Below the pieces are notes generated by a model, which ran no database searches, was not told the origin of the DNA, and worked only from the letters and a program-made list of their open reading frames with translations. The position numbers were made by a program, and so were the translations under genes. From NCBI GenBank assembly GCA_965116875.1, contig OZ220733.1, positions 704,001 to 768,000 of the forward strand: a stretch of 64,000 nucleotides of DNA. Reading direction: 5' to 3'. Positions 19,254-44,825 of this stretch are shown here, one piece after another (position 1 is the first letter of the stretch; each line of letters opens with the position of its first letter). The DNA is from Candidatus Latescibacterota bacterium (GTDB lineage Bacteria > Latescibacterota > UBA2968 > GCA-2709665).

Positions 19254-22151
19254 TCACCTGAACAGTCCCGAGTATTTAAAGGTCAGTATGTAGTCCTGCG
19301 AACCCTGCTTTTTTGCCAGGGGTCGATTGTCGAAAATGTCCCACCCGAAGCCGATTAGAAACTGATCCTTGAAAAAGGAAACGGCCACACCCAGAGAAAT
19401 GGCCAGCGATTTTTCGGTTGAAAGGGCTTCAAGGATGTTGCCGATAACGGTCAGATGAATGCCGGAAATCGACGGGTTATCCACGTTGTGCCAGCCGGCA
19501 AACGCGAGTCCGGGCAGGCCAAGGAGGCGCTCGGTTCTGCCCCGGACGGTGTTGCCGTCGGCGTCTGTATAATCGCGACCGGGGCGAATGGTCAGAAAAG
19601 AAACCAGCGGCTTGGCCTCAAACTCCCACTTCCAGCCCCCGGCTTCCAGAATCTGCGACACGCTCTGAGGCGCCGCGCCCGGATAGCTTCGTGTTGAGAT
19701 TTTGAGTCGCACCCGGCGATTTTTTTCTTCCGACAGCAGCAGGTTGAGATCCTCGGCAATGACGCGCCCGCCGCTCGACTCGTAGATTCTGACCTTCTGC
19801 TCCTGGTTACTGCGATTGCCTCTGGGGGCGTAGTTTTCGTCCAGCCGGGTCCACGAAACGACGATCTCGCGACCGATCAGCGCTTGCCGTAGCGAATCGG
19901 GAATCGCAATGGACACATCGACCTTCGTGCCGTCTCGCTGCATAACCGGGACATTATCCCAACGAACGGCAAGGGGCTGGGTCTTCTCTCCGCGGGAGGC
20001 CAGAACCTCGACAATCTGTGCCAGGTCGATGTCTGCGAGCACCCCGTGCCCCTTGTATTCCAGCGGACGTGCGCGATCCTTGACGTCATTGCTGACCAGG
20101 AAAACACGCCCTCGCCGGTCACCCAGGGCATGCGGCGTAAAATAGAGCGTGAGGCGCGCCGACTCGCCTGCGGCCAGAGCGAATTTCGCCGGTGCGACGT
20201 GGGCTTCCTTGCTCTGGGGATGCGCCTCGACCTGCAGCACGGTATCGCCGACGTTGGTGGCCACGAGGGTCCTCTCCGCCTGCTCTCCCTGGATCGCATA
20301 GCCAAAATCAACGATGCCCGCCGGATTCAACTCGATTTCCGCTGCCGCGCCCTGGCCCTTGAGCAAGACGTCGAGCGACATGATCTCGTTCGCGCCCAGG
20401 CCTTCCAACCGTAAGGTTCCTGAAATCGCTCCGCGTGCCGACGGGCTGAAGGTCACGTCCAGCGGCAAGGTGCGCTGACTGTGGGCCGGCAGCAGGAACC
20501 TGTTGTCGGAGTCGATCGAGGTGTGGGCGCTGAATTCGTCGCTCGTCGAGCGAAACCGGTGAATCTCGAAATCGGCGTTGCCCACATTGGCTATTTCGAC
20601 GACTCGACTGGTGCTTTCGCCCACGGAAACGCGGCCGAAGTCTACGGTCGCCGGGCTGAGAGCGAAGAACCGGCCTACGCCCCGCAGATGCACGGTCTCA
20701 CGCACGGCTCCGGCCTCGACCTGGAGGGTGGCCTTGCGAGGACCGGATCCCCTGGGCGAGAAACTCAGCGCCACCTGCGCGCTGGCTCCCGGTTGAATGA
20801 GGACGGAGCGCTGCGCGAGATTGAATTCATCGCCCTCGTCCTCGACTACAGAGACCTGCACCGCGCCCGGCCGGCCACCCTTGTTCCACAATAGCAAATG
20901 GCCGCGCGTGGTCCCGCCAATCGGCACGCTGCCAAAGTCAACCTCGCCGTTGATAATCTCAATATGCGGCGGACTGATTCGGCCGCGGCCCGAAAGGGGG
21001 ATGGCGACGTCAGCAGCCTGCGGATCGTTGGTGTGAAGGCGCATGACTCCGCTTCGGTCACCTTCGTGCCGCGGCGCAAACGCTATATTCAGATCAAGTC
21101 GTCTCCCGGGAGCAATGGTTGCCGACGAGTCACCTTCACCGATGGCAAATGCCGCACCCTCGATGCCGACAATTTCAACTCGTAACTCGGCTCGGCCCTG
21201 GTTCAGGACGGACACCTGGCGCGTGAGGCGCCGACTCACTTCGACGGCGCCGAAATCGAGCCCTACCCGCGGGAGGGGAGAAAAAGCAGCCTCCGGCGCC
21301 AAACCGCTCCCCTGCAAGGGAATGGACCACTCCCCAAGGTCACGTGCGGTGACAACCAGTTCGGTTGAGACCGGCCCCGCGCGCGTTGGCGCAAACGCAA
21401 CGTCGATCCGCGTTTCACCGCCTGAAGGGGGCCATGGGCCGACGTCGCGCTCAATGCGAAAGGGACCCGTGAGGTCGGCAACTTCCATCTGACCCTCCGC
21501 CCCGGGCACGGTTCCGCTATTGCGGACGGTAACAACCGCCGTCGCCTCGTGCCCGACGGGCACCGCGCCAAAATCCAGCCCCCCGGCCGGCAAGAGCTCC
21601 AGGGACGGAACAACGGCTGTCGCCTGCAGCGGCACGGACAGGCGCCGGCCGATGAATAGCGCGGCAACCTGAACCGTCAGTTCGCCCGAATACTGCCCGG
21701 CCGCAGAGGCGCTGAAGCTCACTTCGACGCTGCCGACGCCCATGCCGCCCAGGCGCAGCGTATCCGATAACACCTTGAAGCCCTCGCCGCGAATGCCGAC
21801 GACCACCTCAATCGCGTCGTCCTGCAGGTTTTCTATCGAAACGGAAGCTCGTTTCTCGACGCCAACTCCGACGATACCCAGGTCGAGCGCGTTCGGGTCA
21901 GCGGCAAGGCGTTGCGCACGCAGAACCGCCGGCAGGCAAAGGAGGGCGATCAAGAGAATCAACGAAAGGCGAACAACCCGCCTGAATTTCGAACGCCATG
22001 GTTGTCGGACATTCACGTCGCAGAGGTGCGGAAGATCACGCCTGAGGAATCCTCTGCGCCGATCCGGTTGGCCCTGGTTTCGTCCATGCATACGTCCAAA
22101 ATACCCATTGTGAATTGTGGTGAAGATTGATTGCATTGTCCCGGCAATCAT
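19254..22151 (-). CDS. Secreted multi-Ig (ASH/choice-of-anchor D-like) repeat protein; true start probably downstream of 22151
   Basis: Hydrophobic signal region; six ~100-aa repeats starting (L/V)D(F/L)G (five continue xVx(V/I)) with NxG and FxP motifs; beta-strand-rich C-terminus. Confidence 0.75.
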   Translation of the reverse strand: MIAGTMQSIFTTIHNGYFGRMHGRNQGQPDRRRGFLRRDLPHLCDVNVRQPWRSKFRRVVRLSLILLIALLCLPAVLRAQRLAADPNALDLGIVGVGVEKRASVSIENLQDDAIEVVVGIRGEGFKVLSDTLRLGGMGVGSVEVSFSASAAGQYSGELTVQVAALFIGRRLSVPLQATAVVPSLELLPAGGLDFGAVPVGHEATAVVTVRNSGTVPGAEGQMEVADLTGPFRIERDVGPWPPSGGETRIDVAFAPTRAGPVSTELVVTARDLGEWSIPLQGSGLAPEAAFSPLPRVGLDFGAVEVSRRLTRQVSVLNQGRAELRVEIVGIEGAAFAIGEGDSSATIAPGRRLDLNIAFAPRHEGDRSGVMRLHTNDPQAADVAIPLSGRGRISPPHIEIINGEVDFGSVPIGGTTRGHLLLWNKGGRPGAVQVSVVEDEGDEFNLAQRSVLIQPGASAQVALSFSPRGSGPRKATLQVEAGAVRETVHLRGVGRFFALSPATVDFGRVSVGESTSRVVEIANVGNADFEIHRFRSTSDEFSAHTSIDSDNRFLLPAHSQRTLPLDVTFSPSARGAISGTLRLEGLGANEIMSLDVLLKGQGAAAEIELNPAGIVDFGYAIQGEQAERTLVATNVGDTVLQVEAHPQSKEAHVAPAKFALAAGESARLTLYFTPHALGDRRGRVFLVSNDVKDRARPLEYKGHGVLADIDLAQIVEVLASRGEKTQPLAVRWDNVPVMQRDGTKVDVSIAIPDSLRQALIGREIVVSWTRLDENYAPRGNRSNQEQKVRIYESSGGRVIAEDLNLLLSEEKNRRVRLKISTRSYPGAAPQSVSQILEAGGWKWEFEAKPLVSFLTIRPGRDYTDADGNTVRGRTERLLGLPGLAFAGWHNVDNPSISGIHLTVIGNILEALSTEKSLAISLGVAVSFFKDQFLIGFGWDIFDNRPLAKKQGSQDYILTFKYSGLFR

Positions 22152-31235: not shown

Positions 31236-31376
31236 GGATTCCGTGCACGAATCGAATTACAGCGAACCCGCAGCGATGACCGGCAGACGGCCTGCTGGCG
31301 TCGATTTATGGTTGCCAATTTGTTGGTTATAACGTACAATTGACCTCCTGCGGAGTTCACCGTTTCCTTCCTGACT

Positions 31377-31400
31377 GACTACAAGGAACGTTCCCGATGA
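31377..31400 (+). pseudogene. Last codons of a deleted RelE/HigB-type toxin (DYKERSR*)
   Basis: ATGA overlap with antitoxin start; DYKER resembles the C-terminus of HI1419-type toxins. Confidence 0.45.
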
Positions 31401-31708
31401 AGCCTTCCGTCCTATTTGAAAAACACCATTTTGAATTCCTCAGTGATCCCGAACGCGCGCGCGCCTACCTCGAGGTGGCGCTCGAGGAAACCGCCAGAGA
31501 CCAGGACAAGTCGGCCCTTCTGCTGGCGCTCAAGGACGTTGCCACCGCGCGAGGCGGGCTGGGACGATTGGCCAGGCAGGCAAACCTGAACCGGGCCCAT
31601 GTATACAGGGCGCTATCAGCAAACGGGAATCCACGTCTGGATACGATGGAGAAGATCCTGAACAGCCTCGGTTTCAGATTGTCTATCGAACCGCTGGCAG
31701 AGCGTTAG
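31397..31708 (+). CDS. Addiction-module antidote protein (HI1420-like HTH antitoxin)
   Basis: AYLEVALE, ALKDVATARGG, LNRAHVYRALSANGNPRLDT. Confidence 0.88.
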   Translation: MKPSVLFEKHHFEFLSDPERARAYLEVALEETARDQDKSALLLALKDVATARGGLGRLARQANLNRAHVYRALSANGNPRLDTMEKILNSLGFRLSIEPLAER

Positions 31709-31870
31709 AAATGAGCGTACGGCCATCGGCCGTCGCTCAAGGTGTCGCACAATGCAACAGCGACGCGACGGGTGGCCGTCGATCGATTCGGCGCTCCAAC
31801 GGTACGTACCCAACGCCCTTTCTCCACCATGCTGCACACCTGAATCAGTCTCGTTTCCAATCCTGACATT

Positions 31871-31963
31871 AACCTTGATGCGTCGTTTTTCGGTGACGTT
31901 CGTTCGTATATGTGCAAGTTGACAAAGGCGATTCAACTGCTGATTACCAGGATACACCAGGTT
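31871..31963 (+). repeat. Unrecognised 93-bp non-coding element, copy A
   Basis: 75/93 ungapped identity to the reverse complement of 43871-43963. Confidence 0.8.
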
Positions 31964-32182
31964 GCTGGACGTCAACTGAAAAAATGTCCTTCCAGACGAC
32001 CATTTCAGCCCGTTTCGAATGGTTTCGTCGCGGTGTCGCGTCGCGGTTATTGGGGAATTGAAGTTAACTTCAATTCGAAAAAAGACAGCCGACAAATTTA
32101 CCACAAAAGGCACAAAAGGGATCAGTGCGAAAGCGGGGTATCGAGGTCGTTCAAATGAATGAAATTTCCGCTCACGTCCAGT

Positions 32183-32275
32183 GAACTCACGTGTCCGGCA
32201 CTTTTACGTCAATTCGCCTTTGTTCTTCAGCATATGTTCGACATTCAAGTCCCAGAATAATTGCGTATCAAGATT
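32183..32275 (-). repeat. Unrecognised ~93-bp non-coding element, copy C (diverged)
   Basis: About 65% identity to copy B; shares CTTGATnCG, GGGAC, GTCGAA, AAAGGCGA. Confidence 0.65.
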
Positions 32276-32336
32276 TGATGCCTAACGGTATGGCCGGTCT
32301 GCTGGCATCTGTTCAGACCGAAGATGCCCACAGGGC

Positions 32337-32513
32337 TCAGTCGGTATCGTATCTGGCTTTCAACCTTCGGATCCATTCCTCAGTCTCGGCCCAATGGGCA
32401 AGCTGCTCAGGGGTGGGGACAGGCAGGCCGGCCTTTTCATAATCGGCCGGCGAGTAGGGTGTGCCATCCGGATGCCAAACCTGCATACCGGCGGTGTCCT
32501 GGCGATTGCGCAT
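32337..32513 (-). CDS. 58-aa hypothetical protein (below ORF-track cutoff)
   Basis: RBS aaaggag; MRNRQDTAGMQVWHPDGTPYSPADYEKAGLPVPTPEQLAHWAETEEWIRRLKARYDTD*; followed by hairpin ggcatct..agatgcc. Confidence 0.65.
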   Translation of the reverse strand: MRNRQDTAGMQVWHPDGTPYSPADYEKAGLPVPTPEQLAHWAETEEWIRRLKARYDTD

Positions 32514-32583
32514 CGTTGTTTCACTCCTTTCTCTTATGGAAGATTCCCAGCTGGCTCTTCGACGTCGCTCCGGGACCAGCCCC

Positions 32584-32727
32584 TCAATCGACGTCAGTCT
32601 TCACTTCGATGATGAGTCGGCAGTGGTCGCTTGGCCCCCATTCGTGGACTTCGTTCATCGCCCGCACCGAAACGCTCTTGTGGAAGCCGCGCGACGCGAA
32701 TGCGTAGTCCAATTGGCGGGCGCGTTC
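32584..32727 (-). pseudogene. 3' fragment of an endonuclease/exonuclease/phosphatase (EEP) gene
   Basis: RQLDYAFASRGF...WGPSDHCRLIIEV*: LDY and SDH catalytic motifs, no 5' part. Confidence 0.75.
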
Positions 32728-32850
32728 GTTTCCAAAAAAAAAGCATCCCCGCCCGACGGACAGGGATTTGCGTCTTCTTCAACGGGTCGGCATTAATTGC
32801 GCTATTGAAATTCAGACCCGTAGACAACCATTGACGTGGCGCCTACCAGA

Positions 32851-33429
32851 TTATGACATGCTAATTTTCTCATCGGAACCCTGCCTTAGATAGTTGTACC
32901 CACGAAGATTGGCGGTCTTCTTGACGATTTTTTCGATTATCGATAGACGGGTCGACCTGGATGGTAAATGAAGTCCAAGTTCCCCTCCGATCTGTTTCAG
33001 CATTGAAACATTGTACTTCTGCCTATCCGCCAACTCACGCTCTACATCGCGAGAGGGCAAACCCTTCAATTCCTCCGCTATTGCAATTGCTTGCTCGCGT
33101 ATCTGTGCAGTATCAGAGTTGCGCCGAGACTTCCTGGTTGCCTTAATTTCCGACGAAAGACCGAGAACATTAGAAAGCAATGGGTCGGACTCAGCCACGC
33201 GAACACAATCACGAATTGCCTCTATCGTTGACGTGACACCCTGTACGTCCTCCCCCGCAGGAAGCGACCTCAACCTGATCCTGAAATCTTGAAGAAACTT
33301 AATCAACGCATCCAATTCGCGATCAAGGCGCAGTTTAGTTTCGTCAGCAGGCAACGCATCAACCAGCTCGGACAGCTTGCTGAGGAAGCTGTCCAATTTC
33401 CTTCCCGTCAACTTTACTGAATCGCTCAT
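32851..33429 (-). CDS. Hypothetical helical protein downstream of ParA
   Basis: 192-aa ORF, 2-nt gap from ParA stop, lower GC; C-terminal LKQIGGELGL..TRLSIIEKI resembles Rho-N/SAP-like helix-extended-helix. Confidence 0.7.
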   Translation of the reverse strand: MSDSVKLTGRKLDSFLSKLSELVDALPADETKLRLDRELDALIKFLQDFRIRLRSLPAGEDVQGVTSTIEAIRDCVRVAESDPLLSNVLGLSSEIKATRKSRRNSDTAQIREQAIAIAEELKGLPSRDVERELADRQKYNVSMLKQIGGELGLHLPSRSTRLSIIEKIVKKTANLRGYNYLRQGSDEKISMS

Positions 33430-33431
33430 TT

Positions 33432-34370
33432 TCAGAACATCTCCATTAGTTCGTCGACGATTCTTGGATACTCCTGCTTGTTCGAAGCACGTCTGGCATT
33501 GTCAGAATCATGCAGCCAAATTGGAAGGCTGTTTTCGGCGGCTTCGGTATATCCGATCAATTCGGTTGTATGGGTTTTGAAGCATTTGGCGGCACCCAAT
33601 TGGGATCGGACCTCCTCCATCTTGCTAGCATGTGCGATTGTTTGCATTGCGCCGCCAATTCGTACCCGCACGAAAAGAACGGCACCCAACTTCGCAACCC
33701 TGTAGTTATCTGCCGGTCGGCCGGCCAAGACTGCAGCGGAGTTCACCAACTCGCCGATTTTGTTAACTTTTCCGATCAGGATGTTTAAACCAATAGTAGA
33801 AAGATGGTCTGGTATCGCAGTCACGATATAATAGTGACTCGCAACAAGCGCGTTCTGGGTCATCAGATAGAGGTTTGGCGGACAGTCAATGAGAACGTAA
33901 TCGTAGTTGTCTCGGACTTCATCGATAGTTTTAACAAGAAAATCCCGTTCACGCAAGAATTGCCGTGCGTTCTTCCTCAACATCTCCATACTTGGATACG
34001 CGCCGGCGATTTGGCCACCGCCAATATCCTCGCCGATCAATTCTATATCGCACGGGACCAGATCAATCCTGGGGTACCGACGACCGTCCCGCAATCGAAT
34101 TGGGTTTTCCCACAGATATCTTTTCGCGTCGATAGGATTACCGTCCAAATATCTCTTATACATGGTTGCAATCGTACCGACTCTGTCTTTGCGCCTCTGC
34201 CAATCTTCGATAGAGGCACACAAAAACGTCAGGTTCGTTTGTGGATCAATATCGATCAGCAAGACTCGTTTGTCTTTTAATCCTGCCAACCAGCATCCAA
34301 CGTGATAGGCTGAAGTTGTCTTTGCAACACCACCTTTGTAATTGATAAATGCGAGGACTTTTGCTGCCAC
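33432..34370 (-). CDS. ParA/MinD-family ATPase
   Basis: NYKGGVAKTT deviant Walker A, LLIDIDPQTNLT, YDYVLIDCPP. Confidence 0.92.
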   Translation of the reverse strand: MAAKVLAFINYKGGVAKTTSAYHVGCWLAGLKDKRVLLIDIDPQTNLTFLCASIEDWQRRKDRVGTIATMYKRYLDGNPIDAKRYLWENPIRLRDGRRYPRIDLVPCDIELIGEDIGGGQIAGAYPSMEMLRKNARQFLRERDFLVKTIDEVRDNYDYVLIDCPPNLYLMTQNALVASHYYIVTAIPDHLSTIGLNILIGKVNKIGELVNSAAVLAGRPADNYRVAKLGAVLFVRVRIGGAMQTIAHASKMEEVRSQLGAAKCFKTHTTELIGYTEAAENSLPIWLHDSDNARRASNKQEYPRIVDELMEMF

Positions 34371-34720
34371 GATCTATATCCTTAACGTAGACAACCGCAC
34401 AATGTCAATCTCGGCGAAAATCACGATAGATGGTCGACGCTACGTGTTGGATTGCTGTGAAAGCTTGTCAAGGCACCCTTGCACGAAGGGCAGACCGTAG
34501 TAGAATAACGCTTTGGCCGCGATAAATCGCGAGGCCCAGGGTCAAGCGAGACGAGACCGTATCCCTTGGAAATCTCGATAAATGCACGAAACTCCAATCA
34601 CGATTGAAACCCAAGGATCTCTGTTGACAAACTTTACACGACTTTGGTCCAAATATATGTCATTTAATGGGCGAAAGGCAACCCCGTTTCTTTCATGTAC
34701 TTTGATTGACCGCTACCCAC

Positions 34721-34975
34721 TCAAGTGTCGAACAGTTCGCGCAGCCAGGCATTGGCCTTCGGAGTGCCGTCGATATCGAACACGAATTCCTGTCCGCGGC
34801 CAACTATGTTGACGTATACCCACGGGCCTCGGCGGCGCCAACGTTTCTCGTCACGCTCGAACCAGCGCACGTCGGACATTTCCTCATCGTCCATCCGTAT
34901 GGTGGTGGTTACAGCGTCCGCCATGCACCCGATCATGAGCGAACAGGGAAACGGCATGGCTGCGAGGAGTGGTTT
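34721..34975 (-). pseudogene. Chimeric remnant: NudC-like fragment fused to the 3' end of an Nmad3 homolog
   Basis: SQP(W)PFPCSLMIGC..EMSDVRWFER (NudC motif, 1-nt deletion) then WVYVNIVGRGQEFVFD; 34721-34840 is 92/120 identical to 37849-37968. Confidence 0.8.
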
Positions 34976-35064
34976 CGAATGCGGTTACGGAAGAAGCGTA
35001 ATGAAACGGAGGCGAGCCCGGTCGGTGCGGACAGCGATTCCCCAGCCTCCCCGGGAGTGGATGT

Positions 35065-35496
35065 CTACGCGCGCAACTTCCGCGATCCGAGCCAGACGCC
35101 CGCGACCCCGATCAGCGGGTTGAGCCAGAGGAACCATTCCTGGTGGCGGGCGCCAGCTGTCGCCTCCATCATCGACACGTCGTCGGGGCGCGGTCCCGCC
35201 GACATATCCACCGGCATCAGGGCCGTCACCACCCCGAGCACGAGTACGACGGCGATTAGAATCGTGGCGGCCCTGGCATCGTGCGCCACCCCGGCACAGA
35301 CTCGTCCGCCGATGTACGCGCCTATGAGCCCGAGCACGACCGAGCCGAGCGCCCAGCCGCCGGATACCTCCCACGAACCCGCCTGGAAGGCGCGCGAGGG
35401 CCCCAACGTCAGCCACAGAAGCGAGAAGAGTACGAAGAGCACGGCGGCCATGGCAATGTAGCCAACGACGGCGGCGAGAATGTTCCTGAGCATCAT
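35065..35496 (-). CDS. Small 4-TM membrane protein
   Basis: RBS ggagg; MMLRNILAAVVGY...; hydrophobic segments. Confidence 0.75.
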   Translation of the reverse strand: MMLRNILAAVVGYIAMAAVLFVLFSLLWLTLGPSRAFQAGSWEVSGGWALGSVVLGLIGAYIGGRVCAGVAHDARAATILIAVVLVLGVVTALMPVDMSAGPRPDDVSMMEATAGARHQEWFLWLNPLIGVAGVWLGSRKLRA

Positions 35497-35786
35497 GTTC
35501 CTCCCTGAAAATGAGCAGCGTTGTCCTGCGAGGTATGAACCTGAAGGGGGCGCGGACTTCCAACGAGACGTGAGCCTGACGACGAGGGCCGCAACGATCC
35601 TGGAGGCATGATCGCAATCGTCCCGCTGGCCAGGATCCGGACCGGAGATTACGGTCACCTGGTTTCGAAGCGGACGATTCGACGTGCTGCCTCTTTCCAT
35701 TGTTCCGAGTCGTACTCGATTAGCCGTAATCGCTTCTGGCGATCGGAGCGCTCCGCAGTTCTGCTGCAATGCCTGCGCCGCCGTCT

Positions 35787-36311
35787 TCAGCAGGCTGCCG
35801 AACCTGACCCGCGCCACGGCGTCAGACGCGGCCACCAGCGATTCACGTGCAGGCGATAGGTCTCGTACGACCCTGCGAATCTTCGACGAAGTTTCGGCTC
35901 CTCATACAGCCGCACGTTCAGGTGGAACGCGGCGAGCATCACCCCGGCGTACGCCAACAGCCGCGCCTGGCCAAAGAGCAGCGTCTGCCCTGAAATGATG
36001 ATCAGCACGGAGACGTACATCGGATTTCGCACGAACCGATAGAGGCCCGAAACGACCAGCACTTCGGTCTGCGCCAGCGGCGCCGGTGTGCCGCGCCCCT
36101 CAAGAGCGAAACGGGCGAAGCAGTCCAGCAGGCAGGCCAGGCCCGCCACGACCAACGCCACCCCTACCGCCCGCACGCCGGGCAGGCCGAGCAGCGGCGG
36201 CTGCATGTTCCAGCCGACCAGTGCGAACGGGATGACGCCGGCAACGACAGCCGGCGCGAGCCAGAAGAAGACGAACGACCCGACGATCGCTCGCGTCCGT
36301 GTGCCCTTCAC
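35787..36311 (-). CDS. Isoprenylcysteine carboxyl methyltransferase/PEMT-family protein
   Basis: GRGTPAP, LVVSGLYRFVRNPMY, YEEPKL..F..Y..Y...V.RW. Confidence 0.88.
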   Translation of the reverse strand: MKGTRTRAIVGSFVFFWLAPAVVAGVIPFALVGWNMQPPLLGLPGVRAVGVALVVAGLACLLDCFARFALEGRGTPAPLAQTEVLVVSGLYRFVRNPMYVSVLIIISGQTLLFGQARLLAYAGVMLAAFHLNVRLYEEPKLRRRFAGSYETYRLHVNRWWPRLTPWRGSGSAAC

Positions 36312-36373
36312 GTTTCAAACCTTGTTCTGATGGAAGCTGGTCAGTGGTAGAAACAGCGGTCAGTGACCAGGAT

Positions 36374-37705
36374 TCAATCGGCGTGATCCTGTAGCGTCTT
36401 GTCAATCATCTTCGAGAACACCTGCTGAAACTGCTCGCGGATTTTAGATCGAGCCAGGTTTTTCAGCGGAAAGCTCGGGCGACCGTAAGGCCGCTTGTCC
36501 AGATCCACACCATTTATCTGACATAGATCCGACCATAGCTCTTTGCGAGCATTCAACGTATCGAACGGGGCGGCCATGTACTGGAATTGGACGACCACAT
36601 TGCCGTCTGCCTTGATGCTGAAGGTCCACTGCAGCAGTCCCTTACCGTCTGTCAATGGCAATCGGTCGAGTTGGAACCAGATTTCCGGCGGATCGGTATT
36701 GCGCGTCGGCAATCGGTTGAAGTACGCGACCCTGCGGCCACTACCATTGAGTTCGACGTGTTTCCGGTGCGCCCACGCAATCAGTTCTTCCGCGATTCGA
36801 GCACACTCGGGACCCTTGCGGACTCCGAGTTCTCGGACGAATGAGTCCGGATCAACGACCCCGGTGCCCTGAAGCGGGGGGACTCGAAACTCAGCAATGA
36901 GCGGGGCGTGGTCACTCAGGGTGCCCATGACGTTGTGATCAACCCGAAGCCGCGTGCATCTGCGCGCAAGTTCCTCCGTGGCATACAGCCAATCCAATTG
37001 TGTTCCGGGGTTGTCGCCGAACGTCCGCACGTGGCGGCAGTCATCCGTACCGCATGGACAACCCGGCATGGGTTCCGGAAGTTTCTTTGCCGTAATAGCG
37101 AGATTGACGAGCCCGAGTGATTCAATTGCAGACAAGATGGCGCGGTATCGAGGCAGTTCAAGCGAGTCGGGACAGGATGAAGTTGTAATATTGAAATCAC
37201 CTCCCAGAATGACTCGCCTAGCGTCATCCGAGTCGAACAGCGGGATCAGGTCGGCGATAACGCGGAACATCCTTGTTTGGGCATAGCCGTCATCCATCGC
37301 GCCATACACGCTCACACATGTGATTGGGCCGATTTCAGGTAGGTGGACTCGAGCGACAATCGCAGAGCCGGGAAGGCTTCCCAGCATACTGAACCTCGTC
37401 GGCCCGTAGCGTGTGCCCACGGCATCGATTTCCTCTATCTCCAGTTTTTTATCGAACGCCACTACCGATGATCCCCAGGGCCGCCGGCCAGCGATTTCCC
37501 GGTGTACGAAGCGAGTGCGCGGGATGTCAGACGGAGCAACGCTTTCCTGAAGCAGCATAACGTCAGGCCCGCTCTCCTTTTGCAGGTAATTCCATGCGTC
37601 CTTGCGCTGATGCAGTGTCCGTTTCCAGTGGTCCATGTTCCAGGTGCCGATTGACAGGCATCGTTCAACTGGCGCCGGGTCGTTCTCTCGGTCGGCTGTG
37701 GTCAT
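36374..37705 (-). CDS. EEP-family nuclease with extra ~160-aa C-terminal domain
   Basis: IGTWN, DVMLLQE, ILGGDFN, QLDWLY, SDHAP. Confidence 0.85.
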   Translation of the reverse strand: MTTADRENDPAPVERCLSIGTWNMDHWKRTLHQRKDAWNYLQKESGPDVMLLQESVAPSDIPRTRFVHREIAGRRPWGSSVVAFDKKLEIEEIDAVGTRYGPTRFSMLGSLPGSAIVARVHLPEIGPITCVSVYGAMDDGYAQTRMFRVIADLIPLFDSDDARRVILGGDFNITTSSCPDSLELPRYRAILSAIESLGLVNLAITAKKLPEPMPGCPCGTDDCRHVRTFGDNPGTQLDWLYATEELARRCTRLRVDHNVMGTLSDHAPLIAEFRVPPLQGTGVVDPDSFVRELGVRKGPECARIAEELIAWAHRKHVELNGSGRRVAYFNRLPTRNTDPPEIWFQLDRLPLTDGKGLLQWTFSIKADGNVVVQFQYMAAPFDTLNARKELWSDLCQINGVDLDKRPYGRPSFPLKNLARSKIREQFQQVFSKMIDKTLQDHAD

Positions 37706-37848
37706 TCAATTTCTCCGCTTCGGTTGAAGGGTTCTATCTTCAAGGGTCAGATAACGTCAACGGGGATCGTGCTCGAATGCCACGTGGTTCGTCGTCTTGT
37801 ACGCAAACTGGCGGATCCACCATACGCATTCAAGCTGACGGGCGACCT

Positions 37849-38700
37849 TTAAGAATCGAACAGGCTTCGCAGCCAGGCTTTGGCTTCCGGAATACCTTTG
37901 GCATCGAAAACAAACTCCTGTCCGCGGCCGACCGTGTTGACGTATACCCATGGTTTTCGGCGTTGCCAAAGGTTTTTTTCGAGGTGGTAGCTGAGCAATG
38001 GACTGCCAGCCTGGGGATAAAACCACGACGGCAGCCGCCATCTGCTGCGATTCGCAGACCGAGGCGCCGTCAAGGTGAGACGTTCTCCACTCCCACCAAA
38101 ATGGCCGGCGCCGTTTCTCGGGGTGAGCCCCATAATGTCGAGCGTCTCATTTGCAATGTAAACTGTGTTGTTGTCCCACCGTCGATTCAGATGTGGATGC
38201 TCAGCCAACCACGGACGTTCGGAACGGGCACGCGTCAGATTCCCGATGGGCACGATCTCCGAAACCTGGAGCCAACCGAATAACATGTGCACGTGAGGAG
38301 CGGCTGGGACGTACCGCCATGTCCCCACGTTGGTCGATTCCACGGCCCGAAACCAGCCAAAGAACAGAAACAGGTCGCCGGGCCCAACGGCTTGGTTTTC
38401 AAGATGGCGCTGAGCGATCTCTGCCTGCCCGAACGCTGGCCGCCAACCGGGCATGCGCGGACGGGCGTCGGCGTTTAGATCCGGATCCAGATGGCACCGC
38501 TGGCGTCGCTTCACTCGACCCTTGGTCAGGCACTCTACGATCTGTCCCAGAGACTCTCCACGCCACGTTACGTCACTGAATCGCGTCGGACTTCTGGGAT
38601 ACGGAATCGGCAGAGACAGAGCAGTGCCGTCCGGAAAAATGGGACTGGGTACCCCGCCGTTTACTGAGTCGAATCCCTTACGGCTGAAAACAACTTTCAT
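37849..38700 (-). CDS. Nucleotide-modification-associated domain 3 (Nmad3)-like protein
   Basis: MKVVFSRKGFDS..GGVPSPI, HLDPDL, FGQ, GDLFLFFGWF, FGWLQV, HPH, GRGQEFV. Confidence 0.75.
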   Translation of the reverse strand: MKVVFSRKGFDSVNGGVPSPIFPDGTALSLPIPYPRSPTRFSDVTWRGESLGQIVECLTKGRVKRRQRCHLDPDLNADARPRMPGWRPAFGQAEIAQRHLENQAVGPGDLFLFFGWFRAVESTNVGTWRYVPAAPHVHMLFGWLQVSEIVPIGNLTRARSERPWLAEHPHLNRRWDNNTVYIANETLDIMGLTPRNGAGHFGGSGERLTLTAPRSANRSRWRLPSWFYPQAGSPLLSYHLEKNLWQRRKPWVYVNTVGRGQEFVFDAKGIPEAKAWLRSLFDS

Positions 38701-39125
38701 AGCCTGTCCCCCTTCGATCCTGTGCGGATATCTGAACTCGGGACAAATAGCGAAGTCGAAAAATCCACCACTGTCACGATCCCTGGTACGGCGTGGAACT
38801 CTGTCGGCATCCCTAACCTGGTTGATTCGTGAACCTGTTTTGGGTCGTGCCATTCAGTGGTGTTGTTCATCAGAGTGCAATATACGGATTTATGATAAAT
38901 TCTTAGTCCTTTTCGTTGAATTTCTGGTGAAAAATGTCGCATTTTGCGCCGGAGAGGCCGTATCTGTGCGAGTGTGGATAAAATCCAAAGCCGTTTATGG
39001 AGATGCGGTTCAAACAATCAACGGGAAGCCGATCTGCGGCGAAACTGGAGTCACGGATGCAACTCGATGAGAAACAACAGGTCGAATCGGGTAGCTACAC
39101 GAATAACAGTCGCGGTCAAACTGGT

Positions 39126-39154
39126 GCACGGGCGACCGGCCGGTCGCCCCTACG
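39126..39154 (-). repeat. GTAG-type REP (reverse orientation)
   Basis: gcacgggcgaccggccggtcgcccctacg. Confidence 0.85.
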
Positions 39155-39179
39155 GTCTCCGTGCTCAGACGGATCCTGA

Positions 39180-39610
39180 TTCATAAATCCCCTCGCCTCG
39201 ATCATATCCTCGGCGATCTCCTGTCTCAGCTCCTCTGGCGCCAGCACCTCACACTCCGGCCCTCAGCTTCGGATCCAGGGCTTCATCTCGAGCGTGTGCT
39301 TCAACCTCAGCCGCATCCGGCAACCTCCATCCGGCTCGTCCGTCACGTCCTCCACGCCCGGCCAGTCCGATTCCCGCACGCGGTACGCGACCCTGGCTGA
39401 AAACCGGAGTTCGACGTCCACAGCCTCGTCGCCACCCATGATGCCCCACGCGTGTTCGAGGAATTCGTACGGATCGAAACCATCCAGCGTCTCAAACGTC
39501 GTCTCCAGCAACGTCGCCCGTTCAATACGCTCCGCCTTGAATTCCCGAATATCCCGCCGCAGATGGTCGTATCCGATAACGTAGCAGGCGTATCCCACCG
39601 GCGACGGCTC
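39180..39610 (-). pseudogene. 5'-truncated WYL/WCX transcriptional regulator with internal nonsense codon
   Basis: YVIGYD..IREFKAERI..AWGI..VELRF..WIRS*GPECEVLAPEELR; TGA at 39263-39265 where Trp is expected. Confidence 0.8.
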
Positions 39611-39645
39611 GGCTTCTGCGACTCCCCCTCAAGGGGGGAGTGATT
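39611..39645. repeat. Palindromic element at the WYL breakpoint
   Basis: actccccc-tcaag-gggggagt hairpin at 39621-39641. Confidence 0.55.
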
Positions 39646-39791
39646 GCACCTGCGATCCTGCTCGTGCGTTCATTTCCACGGTTTGGTTTCGGTTGAACTG
39701 CGCGAATCCGCGCCCGGTGGCAGAATAAAGCCTGCCAATGGGAAATACTGGCAGGCGAGTTGTTGACGCTATCATCGGAAAGGCGTTTTTA

Positions 39792-40091
39792 CTATTTGAC
39801 GCCTATTTTTGCCTCATTTGCGGCAATTCGCTCGCCGAAGGAATCCAATCGTGAATCAATCGCATCAAACTCGTTTTCCACTTTTTCTTCCAATTTCGCG
39901 ATTCTTTGAGTCAGTCGATGTTCCAATCTATCTATTCGTTGATTGATTCCGGACGAGAAACTCCATAGAGATCCCCATAGAACCAGCAGAAAAATGGCAA
40001 ATCGAAGATTGTCTTCATTGAGGATTTTACCGTATTGACGCGAGATTGAAGGAGTTGTTTCAGATCGAGCCGTCACGAAGTTTCTCCGCAC
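39792..40091 (-). CDS. Small TM + coiled-coil hypothetical protein
   Basis: Hydrophobic segment then heptad RIDRLEHRL..RLDSFGERI; overlaps protease stop. Confidence 0.6.
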   Translation of the reverse strand: MRRNFVTARSETTPSISRQYGKILNEDNLRFAIFLLVLWGSLWSFSSGINQRIDRLEHRLTQRIAKLEEKVENEFDAIDSRLDSFGERIAANEAKIGVK

Positions 40092-40453
40092 GCTTTCAAC
40101 AGAACCGCCGGCAGCCTTTTTAATTGTTCATTGCGGGGATCGACCTCGAATCCGCCGGACTCCAATGCGGTCACGCCAAGTAGCGGTTCGGCGCGTTCGT
40201 CCCCGTAGACGAGGGTCCCACCAACGACTTCTCCTTCGAACTCCAGTTCGGCAATCGTTATGTCCATGGCAACGGGCTTTCCATCTGCAAGTACATACTC
40301 CCGGCGGCCCCTTGGCGTGAGTCCAATAGCATCGAGGTGTGTTCTCGGTACCAGCGAGTCGAAAGCGCCTGTATCGACAAGGAACTTTCCGGTCCAACTG
40401 CGTTCCGGATCCGCGGGGTTGCGGATGGTTACGTCCACGTATGTCGCACCCAT
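40073..40453 (-). CDS. Clan AA aspartic protease (AF_0612-like)
   Basis: FLVDTGA catalytic motif; LADG; EPLLGVTALE. Confidence 0.88.
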   Translation of the reverse strand: MGATYVDVTIRNPADPERSWTGKFLVDTGAFDSLVPRTHLDAIGLTPRGRREYVLADGKPVAMDITIAELEFEGEVVGGTLVYGDERAEPLLGVTALESGGFEVDPRNEQLKRLPAVLLKACGETS

Positions 40454-40546
40454 TGGTCGTTCTCCATGTGTGAGCAAGTTCTACCGTGGAATTCCTTTAA
40501 CCATAGCTAATTTCTGCGACAGATGCAAGACGCGATGATATTTCAA

Positions 40547-40690
40547 GGACGACCGGCCGGTCGCCCCTACACGCCTGTGGCGCCTGTCCGATAGATTGTG
40601 CGGTTTCCACAGGACCCGGCGTCTGTCCGGACACAGGACCCCGAAGTTTCGGCCTGACTTACGTGGGCAGACAGGAATGTCCGCCCCACC
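40547..40690. repeat. REP cluster (GTAG-type at 40547-40570; gtgggcagacaggaatgtccgccccacc at 40663-40690)
   Basis: Palindromes plus short direct repeat cacaggaccc. Confidence 0.6.
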
Positions 40691-40744
40691 CTCACACAGG
40701 CTTCCTCATCGGCGGCGCCCGCCGTTGCGCGGGCCTCCCGATCG

Positions 40745-41062
40745 TCAGGCGATCAGCACGGCCGTGCCGCTGACCGAGACCATGAGCATGCTCCCGTCCC
40801 CGACGACCTCGTAGTCCAGGTCGATGCCCACGACGGCGTTCGCTCCCTCCTGCAGGGCGGCTTCTTCCATTTCCGATAATGCAATTTCCCGGGCCTGCTT
40901 CAGTTCCTTCTCATACGCCGCCGACCGGCCGCCCACGATGTCGCGAATGCCGGCAAAGAAGTCCTTGAAGATATTCGCGCCCAGGATGGCCTCGCCGGTG
41001 ACGATGCCTTTGTACTCGCGGATGGTCTTGCCTTCGATGCATGGCGTGGTGGTAACGATCAT
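40745..41062 (-). CDS. UPF0145/YbjQ-family protein
   Basis: [51 protein letters not shown]. Confidence 0.93.
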
Positions 41063-41121
41063 CGGTGTGCCTCCCTGGTTATATTGGCCGTTAGCGGCCG
41101 TATCTCGCGCCGGCCGCTTTG

Positions 41122-41425
41122 ACGAATCATGGTCATTTGTAGCTGTTGTAGACGATCGCAAGCCAGCGTTCGGTGCTCATCCAGCCCTGGCCCCACGACT
41201 GCCATTTCTCCGGCACGCCGGCGGCCTGGATTTCCTCCAGCGTCTTTCCCGCCGCCAGGGACTCCTTGACGAGGTCCGCGCACGTTTCAAGCATCTCGAG
41301 CGCGGTCCTCAGGTCGTCCACCGCAGCGAGCGGCCCGTGACCGGGGATTATACGCGCATCCGGCGGGATTTGTTTCAGGAGAGACCGCACGGCCTCGATG
41401 TAACCCTGAACGTCCCCGCCGCCGC
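41122..41425 (-). repeat. 304-bp direct repeat of the MBL hydrolase 3' end (43951-44254)
   Basis: About 14 mismatches in 304 nt, mostly synonymous. Confidence 0.92.
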
Positions 41426-41719
41426 TGACGGCGACGCTGATGCCGGATGAGCATTTGTTTTCGGTATTGCTCTCGCCGGCGACTTCGTCGACGCAGGCGC
41501 CGCAGTAATAGGTCCCGGCGTCCCATGGCGCGTTCGGACTGATCGACTCGGCGCTCCTGTCGACAGCCGGCAGGCTGCCCACGGCGTCCGCGCCCACTTC
41601 CGTGTCATCCGTGGAGATCGTCGCGTCGGTCGAGTGGTAGTAGCGCAACCACGTAGCCTCGGCCGAAGCATTGCCCTGGTTCCGCACCGTGGCGCTCAAC
41701 GTGAAGGATTGCCCCGGCG
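41133..41719 (-). pseudogene. Frameshifted second CARDB-like domain fused in frame to the duplicated MBL C-terminus
   Basis: 2-nt insertion (agcgagacaac) at about 41730 relative to the first CARDB copy; ...SVAVSGGG|DVQGYIEAV... junction. Confidence 0.8.
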
Positions 41720-43291
41720 TCAGCGCGTTGTCTCGCTGACAGAGACCGATTCCACCACCGGGTCCGGATCGCCGGGCACAAGACTCACCGCGATGCCTAT
41801 CGGTTGTACCAATCTGGTGACGAGGTCTTCGACGCCGCTGCCGTCGAGGTTGGAACGCCGGATCTGCTTCATGCTCGCATCCGTCCAGTACATCTTGGCG
41901 CCGTCCAGGTCCAGCGCGATGCCTTGCGGGTTCCCCATTCCGGTGACGAGGTCTTCGACGCCGCTGCCGTCGAGGTTGGAACGCCGGATCTGCTTCGTGT
42001 TCGCATCCGTCCAGTACATCCTGCCGCCGTCCACGTCCAGCGCGATGCCGAATGGCGCCACCAACCCGGTGGTGACGAGGTCTTCGACGCCGCTGCCGTC
42101 CAGGTTGGATCGCTGGATCTTGTCCGTGGAATTATCCGTCCAGTACATCTTGCCGCCGTCCACGTCCAGCGCGATGCCAAACGGTTGTCCCCACGGTCGT
42201 TGTGCAGTTAGGTCGACGAGGTCTTCGATGCCGCTGCCGTCCAGGTTGGATCGCTGGATCTTGCGCCTGCCCCGATCCGTCCAGTACATCTTGCCGCCGT
42301 CCACGTCCAGCGCGATGCCTATCGGTTGTACCAATCTGGCGACGAGGGCTTCGACGCCGCTGCCGTCCAGGTTGGATCGCCGGATCCTGCCCTCAGAGGC
42401 CGTCCAGTACATCTTGCCGCCGGACACATCCAGCGCGAGGCTCCATGAAATCCTCGATTCAGTGACGAGGTCTTCGACGCCGCTGCCGTCGAGGTTGGAA
42501 CGCTGGATCTTACCCGTGCCATGGCCATACTCCGTCCAGTACAGCTTCCACACACGCGAAGCCGGGTCAGGCGTGACGGTTACCCTCACGGCACGGGAGC
42601 AGTTGTAGCCGGTATTGCTCTCGCCGTGGACGTTGTCGACGCAGGCGCCGTAGTACCGGGTCCCGGCGTCCGACGGCGCATTCAGGCTGATTGATTCGGC
42701 GCTCGTGTCGCCCGCCGCCAGGGCGTCCACGGCGTCCGTGCCCACTTCCGTGTCATCCGTGGAGATCGTCGCGTCGGACGAGCGATAGTACCGCAACGTC
42801 GTGGCCTCCGCCGCGGCCGTTCCCTGGTTGCGTACGGTTGCGCTCAAGGTGAAGGATTGACGGGGCGTCAGGGTGCTGTCGCTGACCGAGACCGACTCCA
42901 CGACCAGGTCCGCAGGGCTGCCGGACGGCGGCGTACCGCCACCCGAGGGCGGAACCCGGCTGCCGAAGGCGCCGGCAAAGATCACAAAATCGGAAAAGCC
43001 CACGGCCCCATCGCCATCCAGATCGAATTGCCAACGGTATCCGGAATCGCCTTCCGAAGTTCCGAAACCGCCCGCAAAGAGCACAAAGTCCGCAAAACCG
43101 ACCGTGCCGTCGCCGTCGAAGTCCGGCGACACAGCGCGCGCGGCGTATGCCCGCGTGGCGCCCCTGGTTGCGCCATCATCCAGGCTGGCGCCCAACTCGC
43201 CGCCGGCAATCAGGTCGGTCGACAAATCCGCGCCTGAAATCACGAAAACACACAGAGCAGCATTCAGCAACGTGCGCTGTAGCGAAATCAT
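41720..43291 (-). CDS. Secreted protein: dockerin/EF-hand-like + CARDB-like + six LDL-receptor class B (YWTD) repeats
   Basis: Signal peptide; DFDGDGTVGFADF and DLDGDGAVGFSDF; DLVVESV..TVRNQG; repeats of ALDVDGGKMYWTD..IQRSNLDGSGVEDLV. Confidence 0.85.
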   Translation of the reverse strand: MISLQRTLLNAALCVFVISGADLSTDLIAGGELGASLDDGATRGATRAYAARAVSPDFDGDGTVGFADFVLFAGGFGTSEGDSGYRWQFDLDGDGAVGFSDFVIFAGAFGSRVPPSGGGTPPSGSPADLVVESVSVSDSTLTPRQSFTLSATVRNQGTAAAEATTLRYYRSSDATISTDDTEVGTDAVDALAAGDTSAESISLNAPSDAGTRYYGACVDNVHGESNTGYNCSRAVRVTVTPDPASRVWKLYWTEYGHGTGKIQRSNLDGSGVEDLVTESRISWSLALDVSGGKMYWTASEGRIRRSNLDGSGVEALVARLVQPIGIALDVDGGKMYWTDRGRRKIQRSNLDGSGIEDLVDLTAQRPWGQPFGIALDVDGGKMYWTDNSTDKIQRSNLDGSGVEDLVTTGLVAPFGIALDVDGGRMYWTDANTKQIRRSNLDGSGVEDLVTGMGNPQGIALDLDGAKMYWTDASMKQIRRSNLDGSGVEDLVTRLVQPIGIAVSLVPGDPDPVVESVSVSETTR

Positions 43292-43870
43292 CTCAAAGCC
43301 TCACTGGTATCGACTGCGATGTGACTCTGCGGCGTGCCCGGCGCTTAGGCAGATCGTTGTCTATGACTGCGATGAACCGACGCCGGAGTGTGGAATTTTT
43401 GTTGAGTAGGTAGTCATTCTTTCCCCATCCAGCTTTCTGGCATTTCATACCGAGTTATTAGATCATGGGGAAGGTGTCCGGGCACTCGTTTCCGAACCGG
43501 CCTGCCAGGTTTAGCGTTTGTCTCTTGGTTTGGCGCCAGACCGTGCAAAAACTCTCAGACCCTTTGCGTGCGGGGCAGATCGTCCGTAAGACGTGTCACT
43601 GCTCAAGGCGAGGTCGTTGCGAAGGCCCAGTTATCGGTGCGGCGTTCGAGCAGTCTTTTGCAAGCCTTTGTGAATCGGCCAGAGAAGTGCCTCATCTGGC
43701 GGCTAATCCATTGTCTGACGGGTAAGTCGCTGCCGGGTGAGCTGTTCAGGAGACGGCGTTAACATTTCGGGTACACCGACGAGGTTGAAGGTGCGCTTGA
43801 TATTGTAAGCAAGACTCATCCAAGAAAACTCGGATTTGACCAAAAAAGATCCTTTCGCTTCACTTACAGA

Positions 43871-43963
43871 GACCTGGTGTATCCTGGCAATGCGCAGTTT
43901 AATCGCCTTTCTTCACTTGCACATATTCGACTTAACGTCCCCGAAAACACACGAATCAAGGTC
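43871..43963 (-). repeat. Unrecognised 93-bp non-coding element, copy B
   Basis: Begins inside the MBL stop codon; 75/93 identical to copy A. Confidence 0.8.
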
Positions 43964-44825
43964 ATTTGTAGCTGTTGTAGACGATCGCGAGCCAGCGTTC
44001 GGTGCTCATCCAGCCCTGACCCCACGACTGCCATTTCTCCGGCACGCCGGCGGCCTGAATTTCCTCCAGCGTCTTTCCTGCCGCGATGGACGCCTTGACG
44101 AGGTCCGCGCACGTTTCAAGCATCTCAAGCGCGGTCCTCAGATCGTCCACCGCGGCGAGCGGCCCGTGACCGGGGATTATACGCGCATCCGGCGGGATTT
44201 GTTTCACGAGAGACCGCACGGCCTCGATGTAACCCTGGACGTCTCCGCCGCCGCGGAGGTCGACGTATGGAAACCTGCCATTGAAGAAGAGGTCTCCGGT
44301 GTGGACGACGTTGGATCCGGCAAAGAACACCACGCCGTCGCCGTCCGTGTGGGCATTCGGAAAGTGGACCACGCGCAGTTCCTCGCCGTTGAAATGAATC
44401 GACAGCCCGTCATCGAATGTGATTTCCGGCAGAGCGGCTTCGGGTAACGGCCTGTCATCGACACGCCTGGCCGCCAGGCGGTTGCGGACGTTCCGGTGCG
44501 CGACGATGACGCCCTTCTCTCCAAAATGGGCGTTTCCGCCGGTATGATCACCATGGTAATGTGTATTCAGGACGAAGATGGGATCCCCGCCCCCCATCTC
44601 GCCGATGGCGGCGCGAATCTTTCCGGCCAGCGGCGCGAACTGATCGTCCACAATCAGCACGCCGTCCTCGCCCACGGACACGCCGATATTCCCGCCGCTG
44701 CCTTCCAGCATATAGACGTGGTCCGTGAGTCTGGTGGTCTTGATCTGAACCGCGGAAAAATCCCGCTGAGCGAATGATGTGCCGGCAAAGGCCAGAATCA
44801 GGGCGATTGGTAACCATCCGGACAT
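43962..44825 (-). CDS. Secreted metallo-beta-lactamase-fold hydrolase (cyclase-like)
   Basis: NTHYHGDHTGGN, AHTDGD, HTGDL, IPGHG. Confidence 0.92.
   Translation of the reverse strand: MSGWLPIALILAFAGTSFAQRDFSAVQIKTTRLTDHVYMLEGSGGNIGVSVGEDGVLIVDDQFAPLAGKIRAAIGEMGGGDPIFVLNTHYHGDHTGGNAHFGEKGVIVAHRNVRNRLAARRVDDRPLPEAALPEITFDDGLSIHFNGEELRVVHFPNAHTDGDGVVFFAGSNVVHTGDLFFNGRFPYVDLRGGGDVQGYIEAVRSLVKQIPPDARIIPGHGPLAAVDDLRTALEMLETCADLVKASIAAGKTLEEIQAAGVPEKWQSWGQGWMSTERWLAIVYNSYK

Follow-up and report, generated by a model that had tools for sequence, protein, structure and literature searches.

The window analysed here is a stretch of 64 kb (positions 704001-768000 of contig C1) from the genome of a Candidatus Latescibacterota bacterium, hereafter G000, which comprises 5.45 Mb in one contig. 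The window contains three related non-coding sequences, A (31871-31963, + strand), B (43871-43963, - strand) and C (32183-32275, - strand). The gene upstream of A codes for an addiction-module antidote protein (PF21716), C is the close neighbour of A, and B adjoins a gene with a metallo-beta-lactamase fold (table 1). The homology of the three sequences, proposed by an earlier reading of the letters alone (the original prediction), is confirmed at these coordinates. A and B are identical at 75 of 93 positions without gaps, and C can be aligned to both with two small indels, the mean column identity of the three-way alignment being 82 per cent. A repeat search of the window gave arms of 110 nt with 79 per cent identity for A and B, and A, B and C are the only copies within the 64 kb. 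We consider it very probable that they belong to a family of non-coding miniature transposable elements with inverted repeats (MITEs) mobilised by a transposase of the insertion sequence (IS) family IS1380.

The element is neither limited to three copies nor about 93 bp long, as had been thought. A first search of G000 with the 93 nt yielded 40 scored matches (83-100% identity) among 91 candidates. The search proposed in the original prediction, with a profile model built from the copies and scanned over the genome and its relatives, revealed many further copies. Iterated nhmmer searches of G000 gave 95 and then 128 matches with early models, and 150 with a model of the whole block (E <= 1e-3). 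Ninety-six of these 150 are full-length, that is, they run from model position <=13 to >=205. When copies were aligned with long flanks, conservation extended over about 200 bp and fell to the background level on both sides; the body thus measures about 195 bp, of which the 93 bp make up no more than the 5' half. The body has a G+C content of 47.0 per cent, against 59.6 per cent for G000, and its consensus has stops in five of six frames, the sixth being open for 64 codons only.

The copies are dispersed over the chromosome. Among 128 matches there are 14 neighbouring pairs within 2 kb, mostly nested or abutting, and the copies are otherwise solitary. Three matches end at model position 87 and others at 114-146. 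The idea that such 5'-only matches are the ends of a longer element was rejected: they have nothing in common downstream and are truncated copies. Two copies (G000 16643-16849 and 19545-19750) have an identical right flank of at least 25 nt and therefore represent a local segmental duplication, not separate insertions.

A second dispersed repeat was noticed in G000, with 300 nhmmer matches and a G/C-rich palindromic core of about 140 nt (CCTCTCCCC...GGGAGACGGGAGAGGGGAGAG...CTTCTCCCGTCTCCCC). It occurs alone, for example at 1997987-1998109 and 942749-942889, and also as an insert that makes a long form of the MITE of about 320 bp (copies 2148129-2148454 and 2965408-2965735).

The MITE is present in all 14 other genomes available for the genus (G001-G014; 15 genomes with G000); searches of 26 further genomes, seven from the family's other genera and 19 from the sister family, did not find it. 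A pattern scan of a species-representative collection returned multi-copy matches in metagenome-assembled genome records titled Candidatus Latescibacterota and in some titled Gemmatimonadota. Scattered single matches elsewhere are close to the chance expectation for 17 specified bases by our own arithmetic.

In four public sequencing runs, short-read contigs break at the MITE, and in one run the depth climbs over the element, from about 18 to about 650. The joints listed have other letters between their two sides and derive from other copies, so that they are uninformative on excision or circles. Near G000 227860-227963, the summed contig depth of the four runs is up about 15-fold beside the MITE as well as over it, which suggests that another repeat adjoins this copy.

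The boundaries of the element are marked by imperfect terminal inverted repeats of 10-16 nt, CCTTGATTCG on the left and ...CGAATTGAGG on the right. The left end is identical to the reverse complement of the right end, CCTCAATTCG, at 8 of 10 positions, and the match is longer in some subfamilies among the 70 copies listed. A typical copy starts with YTAA followed by CCTTGATTCG and finishes with CGAATTGAGG followed by YTAA. The flanking 4-mer is repeated directly rather than in inverted orientation; it therefore lies outside the inverted repeat and represents target that was duplicated. This target-site duplication of 4 bp is mostly TTAA or CTAA. Identical 4-mers flank 47 of the 96 full copies, whereas 21.6 +/- 3.4 were expected from permuted right 4-mers (maximum 35 in 10,000 trials). 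When NTAA stands on both sides, as in 46 copies, the first base agrees in 39 (T/T 28, C/C 11), and rarer matched pairs include CTGA/CTGA, TTGA/TTGA and TCAA/TCAA. Nested copies tell the same length: the copy at G000 3632256 lies inside a TTAA at about position 37 of another copy, and around the copy at G000 10912, with flanks TAAA, a duplication of 4 bp is required to bring the interrupted host copy back to consensus spacing.

The supposed compensatory change at the ends of A and B does not survive this delimitation. It pairs a base of the target-site duplication with an internal base, and among 80 copies the two positions are mostly A/C, which do not pair (62 copies), with G/C in six and A/T in five.

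The site of B was examined across the genus. A 19.9-kb query showed the sister species to be collinear across the beta-lactamase-fold gene, and its 3' end was read in 13 relatives. The site is filled in three of them (G005, G003 and G010), in which a full-length element with flanks ATAA follows the stop codon (nhmmer E = 4e-50 to 1e-43). In two others (G004 and G008) a remnant of 11-13 nt of the 5' end is left, and the same remnant stands in the left copy of a 300-bp repeat of the window; the internal deletion took the 3' duplication too. The site is empty in the remaining eight (G014, G006, G002, G007, G011, G013, G012 and G009), in which the gene ends ...CAAATAA or ...CAAATAG and homologous downstream sequence follows, the empty site of G014 being CAAATAAGCG. 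B entered an ancestor of several species at an ATAA in which the final base of a lysine codon is followed by the TAA stop, and at least four species have it. The G in the 'GACCT' at the end of B is a later TAA-to-TGA change in the duplicated target.

At a young copy (G000 2154853-2155059), 98 per cent identical to another copy, the site is filled only in G000; the copies at 228012-228217 and 5093326-5093533 are likewise among the youngest. The flanks of the first are contiguous in G008 and G005, and the four empty sites that were read have a single 4-mer each in place of TTAA-element-TTAA. The MITE is thus polymorphic for insertion between sister species.

The positions of the copies relative to genes were compared with those of the target. 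Genes were called with a crude caller of our own based on open reading frames (ORFs); by this measure 75 of the 96 full copies overlap called genes by less than 10 per cent and are intergenic, although the calls cover 85.8 per cent of G000. The duplication falls on a called stop codon at 18 of 127 5' ends and 14 of 116 3' ends, together 32/243 or 13.2 per cent. Among YTAR sites that are non-coding or at a stop, 471 of 3544 (13.3%) are at a stop, so that a preference for stop codons as such was rejected. The target preference predicts positions such as that of B. A genome rich in G+C has few YTAR sites, and each of them contains TAA or TAG; therefore surviving insertions are intergenic and sometimes exactly on a stop codon. 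Each insertion also makes new YTAA sites, and copies consequently land beside or inside one another, as A beside C. The sense orientation downstream of genes, which had been read from the three copies, does not extend to the family: the 69 copies between co-oriented genes divide into 27 sense and 42 antisense.

A candidate partner was found by scanning 30 PF01609 loci of the genus with the end pattern of the MITE. In G001 and G005 this revealed an element of 1.56 kb with CCTTGATTCCGCAAAAA at both ends and flanks CTAA or TTAA. The homologue in G000 (242801-244354, 1.55 kb) has the left end CCTTAATTCCGCAAAAA, the right end (reverse complement) CCTCAATGCGAAAATA and the duplication CTAA. It carries a single open ORF of 459 aa (242821-244197, minus strand) and is the only copy of the IS in G000, 460 kb from the window. 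The corresponding ends of the MITE are CCTTGATTCGTAAK and (reverse complement) CCTCAATTCGAAAAAA. The right ends of MITE and IS match at about 14 of 16 positions and the left ends at 8-9 of 10, and both elements terminate in CC.

The transposase scores 211.5 and 220.5 bits on the NCBIfam model NF033539 'IS1380 family transposase' (cut-off 180) and 105.3 and 124.2 bits on Pfam PF13701, and it also matches PF01609. The IS1380 family, as summarized in ISfinder, has a single ORF, a length of about 1.5-2 kb, ends starting with CC and direct repeats of 4-5 bp, and the IS of G000 agrees in each of these features. Across the genus the IS is 1554-1581 bp long, with ends CCTT or CCTC and 4-bp duplications, and is found in nine of the 15 genomes (eight of the 14 others). 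Fourteen copies were read; three with common flanks count as one event, which leaves 12 independent insertions. Eleven of these have perfect 4-bp duplications (CTAA 5, TTAA 3, TTAG 2, TAGT 1). A common terminus, duplication length and target are the usual basis for such assignments, and the MITE is therefore assigned to this IS as its putative autonomous relative.

On this evidence, the DDE transposase of the 1.55-kb IS would move the MITE in trans. It would recognise the CC-terminated ends of the MITE and insert it into 4-bp YTAR targets (TTAA or CTAA in most cases), duplicating them in the process. The repeat family has true boundaries, a 4-bp duplication and insertion polymorphism, and an IS with matching ends makes the same duplication. 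We infer both the action of this particular IS1380-family transposase on the MITE and the chemistry of the reaction, be it cut-and-paste or copy-out. Judged from its sequence, the element has every feature expected of a bacterial MITE: a non-coding body below about 600 bp, terminal inverted repeats, a duplication of fixed length, many dispersed copies, filled and empty sites, and an autonomous element with matching ends. Among the alternatives given in the original prediction, a long transposon end came closest. The element is a transposon, and one moved in trans, but it is a whole non-autonomous transposon rather than an end, and the predicted enzyme is a DDE transposase rather than a tyrosine, serine or HUH recombinase.

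Several observations weigh against this assignment. The similarity between MITE and IS is confined to the terminal 10-16 nt or so, and the interiors are unrelated; the link therefore rests on the short ends together with the common duplication length and target. The abundance of the IS, as measured with a protein query, does not follow that of the MITE. No IS copy was found with this query in G003, G010, G008 and G014, which have 47-120 first-look MITE candidates, and G007 has eight IS copies but only 13 MITE candidates. It may therefore be that a large part of the MITE copies is stranded, or that they are served by another transposase. In G009 and G002 an IS copy occupies the position of that of G000 and has identical flanks (about 94% identity), so that the G000 copy is old and its activity only putative. 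The IS was also missed by pattern screens (one mismatch allowed) and inverted-repeat screens of G000 and was found via relatives. Finally, the gene-context figures are weakened by our crude caller (4094 calls). The activity of the MITE itself has nevertheless continued: for 80 copies, identity to the nearest neighbour is 0.894 in the median and 0.995 at most, and nine of the 80 have a neighbour at >= 0.975.

Within the window, C is an old full-length copy lying tail-to-tail with A, and A was probably inserted into a TTAA beside it. What had been described as an inverted pair around about 220 nt consists of two complete elements that abut with one TTAA in common. With both TTAA repeats, A occupies 31869-32067; the 5' flanking 4-mer of C (32274-32277) is CAAA on the minus strand. 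The possibility that A and C are the long inverted repeats of one element of about 400 bp was rejected, as most copies are solitary and each half is a complete element; three further pairs in G000 abut head-to-head as A and C do tail-to-tail. In G005 no more than some 230 bp separate the region of the antitoxin gene (about 31366-31732) from the counterpart of about 35049. What lies in between in the window (31733-35048, 3.3 kb), with A, C and the genes at 32337-34370, is therefore lineage-specific there.

Table 1. Copies of the MITE and associated features in the window.
Feature	Position	Strand	Evidence or remark
5' target-site duplication of copy A, TTAA	31869..31872	+	identical 4-mer at 32064-32067
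Body of MITE copy A, full length, with CCTTGATGCG as left end and GGGGAATTGAAG as right end	31873..32063	+	nhmmer model positions 4-211, E = 1.4e-53, G000 735865-736070
TTAA at which A and C meet with their 3' ends; 3' duplication for A	32064..32067		matches of A and C have 9 nt in common, flanks counted
MITE copy C, full length, diverged, longer than A	32068..32273	-	nhmmer model positions 6-211, E = 1.9e-36, G000 736279-736061
5' inverted-repeat remnant of the MITE, CCATGATTCGT, beside the duplicated 3' end of the beta-lactamase-fold gene	41122..41132	-	same deletion derivative in G004 and G008
Left copy of the 300-bp direct repeat (right copy 43951-44250, 95% identical)	41122..41421		repeat search; lineage-specific DNA of about 2.5 kb lies between the copies
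MITE copy B, first ~122 nt of the element, then unrelated DNA	43840..43961	-	nhmmer model positions 6-126
5' duplication of copy B, ATGA, ancestrally ATAA; last three bases are the stop of the beta-lactamase-fold gene	43962..43965	-	ATAA at the 5' side in G005 and at the 3' side in G003
Metallo-beta-lactamase-fold gene; TAA stop was the insertion target of B	43962..44825	-	Pfam PF00753 (Lactamase_B), 64.7 bits

Two details foreseen for B were borne out: its end overlaps the stop codon of the beta-lactamase-fold gene, and the duplicated segment ends about 13 nt inside it. The 2.5 kb between the 300-bp repeats (41422-43950) are missing from the relatives, which have a single copy of the 300-bp segment. 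They contain a gene for a protein of 523 aa with LDL-receptor class B and CARDB repeats (41720-43291, - strand) and a fusion ORF (41133-41699) that ends in the duplicated fragment of the beta-lactamase-fold gene. The arrangement looks like an integration by homologous recombination or a segmental insertion. The left 300-bp copy has the deleted form of the MITE and the right one the form of 122 nt. The MITE insertion at B is older than the rearrangement, because three relatives without the 2.5 kb have a full copy at this stop codon, and a causal role of the MITE in the rearrangement is not demonstrable.

An origin of the mobility other than the IS1380-family transposase is very unlikely, be it a different enzyme or a partner since lost. 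The candidate in G000 is a single IS5-group element (3711065-3712290) with an open frame of 325 residues, ends GGAATCTCTGATTAAG / GGAAGGTCTGATCAAC and flanks GTAA. It also duplicates 4 bp, IS5 targets YTAR, and several MITE-rich genomes are without a detected IS1380-family IS. However, its ends are unlike those of the MITE, which the IS1380-family ends match on both sides down to the common CC terminus. Moreover, G003, G010 and G014 are without any PF01609 match, so that an IS5-type enzyme is missing there too.

It is very unlikely that the sequence is a structured non-coding RNA or a regulatory RNA, such as a terminator or attenuator, multiplied between genes, with the conserved blocks AAAGGCGATT and CCAGGATACACCAGG as RNA motifs. 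The interior is well conserved between species and subfamilies, most copies are intergenic, a T-run precedes the right end, and local hairpins can be drawn in the 3' half, where one predicted pair is CG in 27 sequences and GC in 16. This switch, however, follows subfamily lines, the copies are oriented 27 sense to 42 antisense with respect to neighbouring genes, and an RNA gene leaves the target-site duplications and empty sites unexplained. The Rfam comparison suggested earlier covered 4227 families and gave no match at the gathering threshold anywhere in the 64-kb window. On neither strand does the minimum free energy surpass that of shuffles (z = -0.37 and 0.01). RNAalifold predicted no consensus pairs for 80 copies; for 50 copies from G000 and other genomes it gave -1.5 kcal/mol, with double changes in 2 of 16 pairs. 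Neither A/C nor the best copy has a site resembling a promoter or a terminator by consensus scans.

The original prediction favoured an attC-like cassette site of an undescribed gene-capture system, that is, a site-specific recombination site marking cassettes and served in trans by a tyrosine, serine or HUH recombinase. A, B and C do lie at edges of lineage-specific DNA, the relatives being without window 31733-35048 and 41422-43950, and B abuts a stop codon, but this reading is barely credible: conservative site-specific recombination creates no target duplications such as the 4-bp direct ones found here, the copies are dispersed singly across the chromosome, a single strand forms no stable hairpin, contact with stop codons is as frequent as at permissible YTAR sites, B was inserted before the adjoining 2.5 kb, and pairs that bracket genes show no excess of equal outer 4-mers. 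Composite MITE-cargo-MITE transposons were rejected on the last of these counts: among 65 pairs 0.3-30 kb apart, 10 have equal outer 4-mers, against about 14.6 expected (permutation match rate 22.5%). The MITE thus gives no support to a new recombination or gene-capture system.

The assignment to a MITE family explains about 150 intergenic 'unknown conserved' blocks of G000 at once, together with the breaks that short-read assemblies show in these organisms. It becomes understandable why some genes end at the element, as does the beta-lactamase-fold gene with its stop codon, and the insertions provide presence/absence markers able to order the species of the genus. One MITE family is added, in an uncultivated phylum, and it is apparently the first to be tied to IS1380 in the literature that could be searched. 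A bold extension, less likely than the parallel with piggyBac drawn below, would be that the transposase uses the approximately 150 scattered MITE ends as surrogates for its own and so mobilises genes of the chromosome, because IS1380-family transposases misrecognise downstream repeat-like sequences and carry flanking genes with them. If true, this would lend some substance to the idea of gene capture.

Compared with known systems, the element lacks the features that define attC sites, repetitive extragenic palindromic (REP) elements and Rfam families. Like an integron attC, it is short, non-coding and able to lie just after a stop codon. An attC, however, has no target duplication, stands in arrays beside an integrase and acts as a folded single strand, none of which holds here. 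No attC-style arrays were seen, the copies being solitary, genome-wide and each with a 4-bp duplication; no search for an integrase gene was made. The REP sequences and their mosaic arrangements (BIMEs) served by RAYT transposases are palindromes of 20-40 nt without target duplication and linked to a RAYT gene. The present unit of about 195 bp has a 4-bp duplication and no strong palindrome, and does not fit this class; no search for a RAYT gene was made.

The target invites a comparison with the eukaryotic transposon piggyBac. The ends of piggyBac start with CC, as here, and it likewise makes a 4-bp duplication centred on TTAA. The target of the present element is looser, comprising TTAA, CTAA, TTAG and occasional others. 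No case was observed of the precise excision that is the hallmark of piggyBac; the sole loss at the B locus is an imprecise deletion that left 11-13 nt. A sequence search of the transposase against solved structures gave no usable match (best E = 0.5). A review of DDE superfamilies pairs piggyBac with IS1380-like prokaryotic elements (PMC5718144), and IS1380 transposases serve as the outgroup for piggyBac trees (PMC10813416). Given this reported kinship, the YTAR/TTAA preference documented here in an IS1380-family element has some interest. The IS and its MITE, with YTAR duplications and CC...GG ends, may conceivably be a natural bacterial counterpart of piggyBac-type target choice, a view that we regard as doubtful; the likeness in TTAA-centred target and CC ends is a possible lead and not a result. 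If the common target went back to a recognition mechanism of common ancestry, the system would be a tractable prokaryotic model for the choice of TTAA by piggyBac-like transposases; the dated insertion sites available in the genus number well over a hundred.

The putative partner agrees with the IS1380 family (ISEcp1, IS1247, ISPme1): its transposase passes the NCBIfam equivalog cut-off, and it has a single ORF, a length of about 1.56 kb and short inverted repeats beginning with CC. The inverted repeat of ISEcp1 starts with CCTAGATTC. The MITE has the ends and duplication length in common with the family, whereas it codes for nothing and its interior is unrelated to the IS. IS1247 is listed with a duplication of 5 bp (PMC3281130, Table 2), as against 4 bp with a clear YTAR preference here. 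ISEcp1 and ISPme1 are described as capturing flanking DNA by misrecognising downstream inverted repeats (PMC9330008), of which there is no sign among the 65 MITE pairs.

Bacterial MITEs are well represented elsewhere, for example by the Correia and Nezha elements. In the searchable literature, which leaves most subscription journals outside, no paper was found that links a MITE to IS1380 or describes MITEs of Latescibacterota. The MaeMITEa-h families of Microcystis aeruginosa measure 176-429 bp and have 20-240 copies (PMC2779907, Table 1). The present element resembles such MITEs in its size of about 200 bp, its tens to hundreds of dispersed and mostly intergenic copies, its terminal inverted repeats and its target duplication. 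It differs in its sequence, in its host phylum (Candidatus Latescibacterota) and in its partner of the IS1380 family. The copies make up a new family of MITEs, of a kind already familiar, and their IS1380-family partner is credible.

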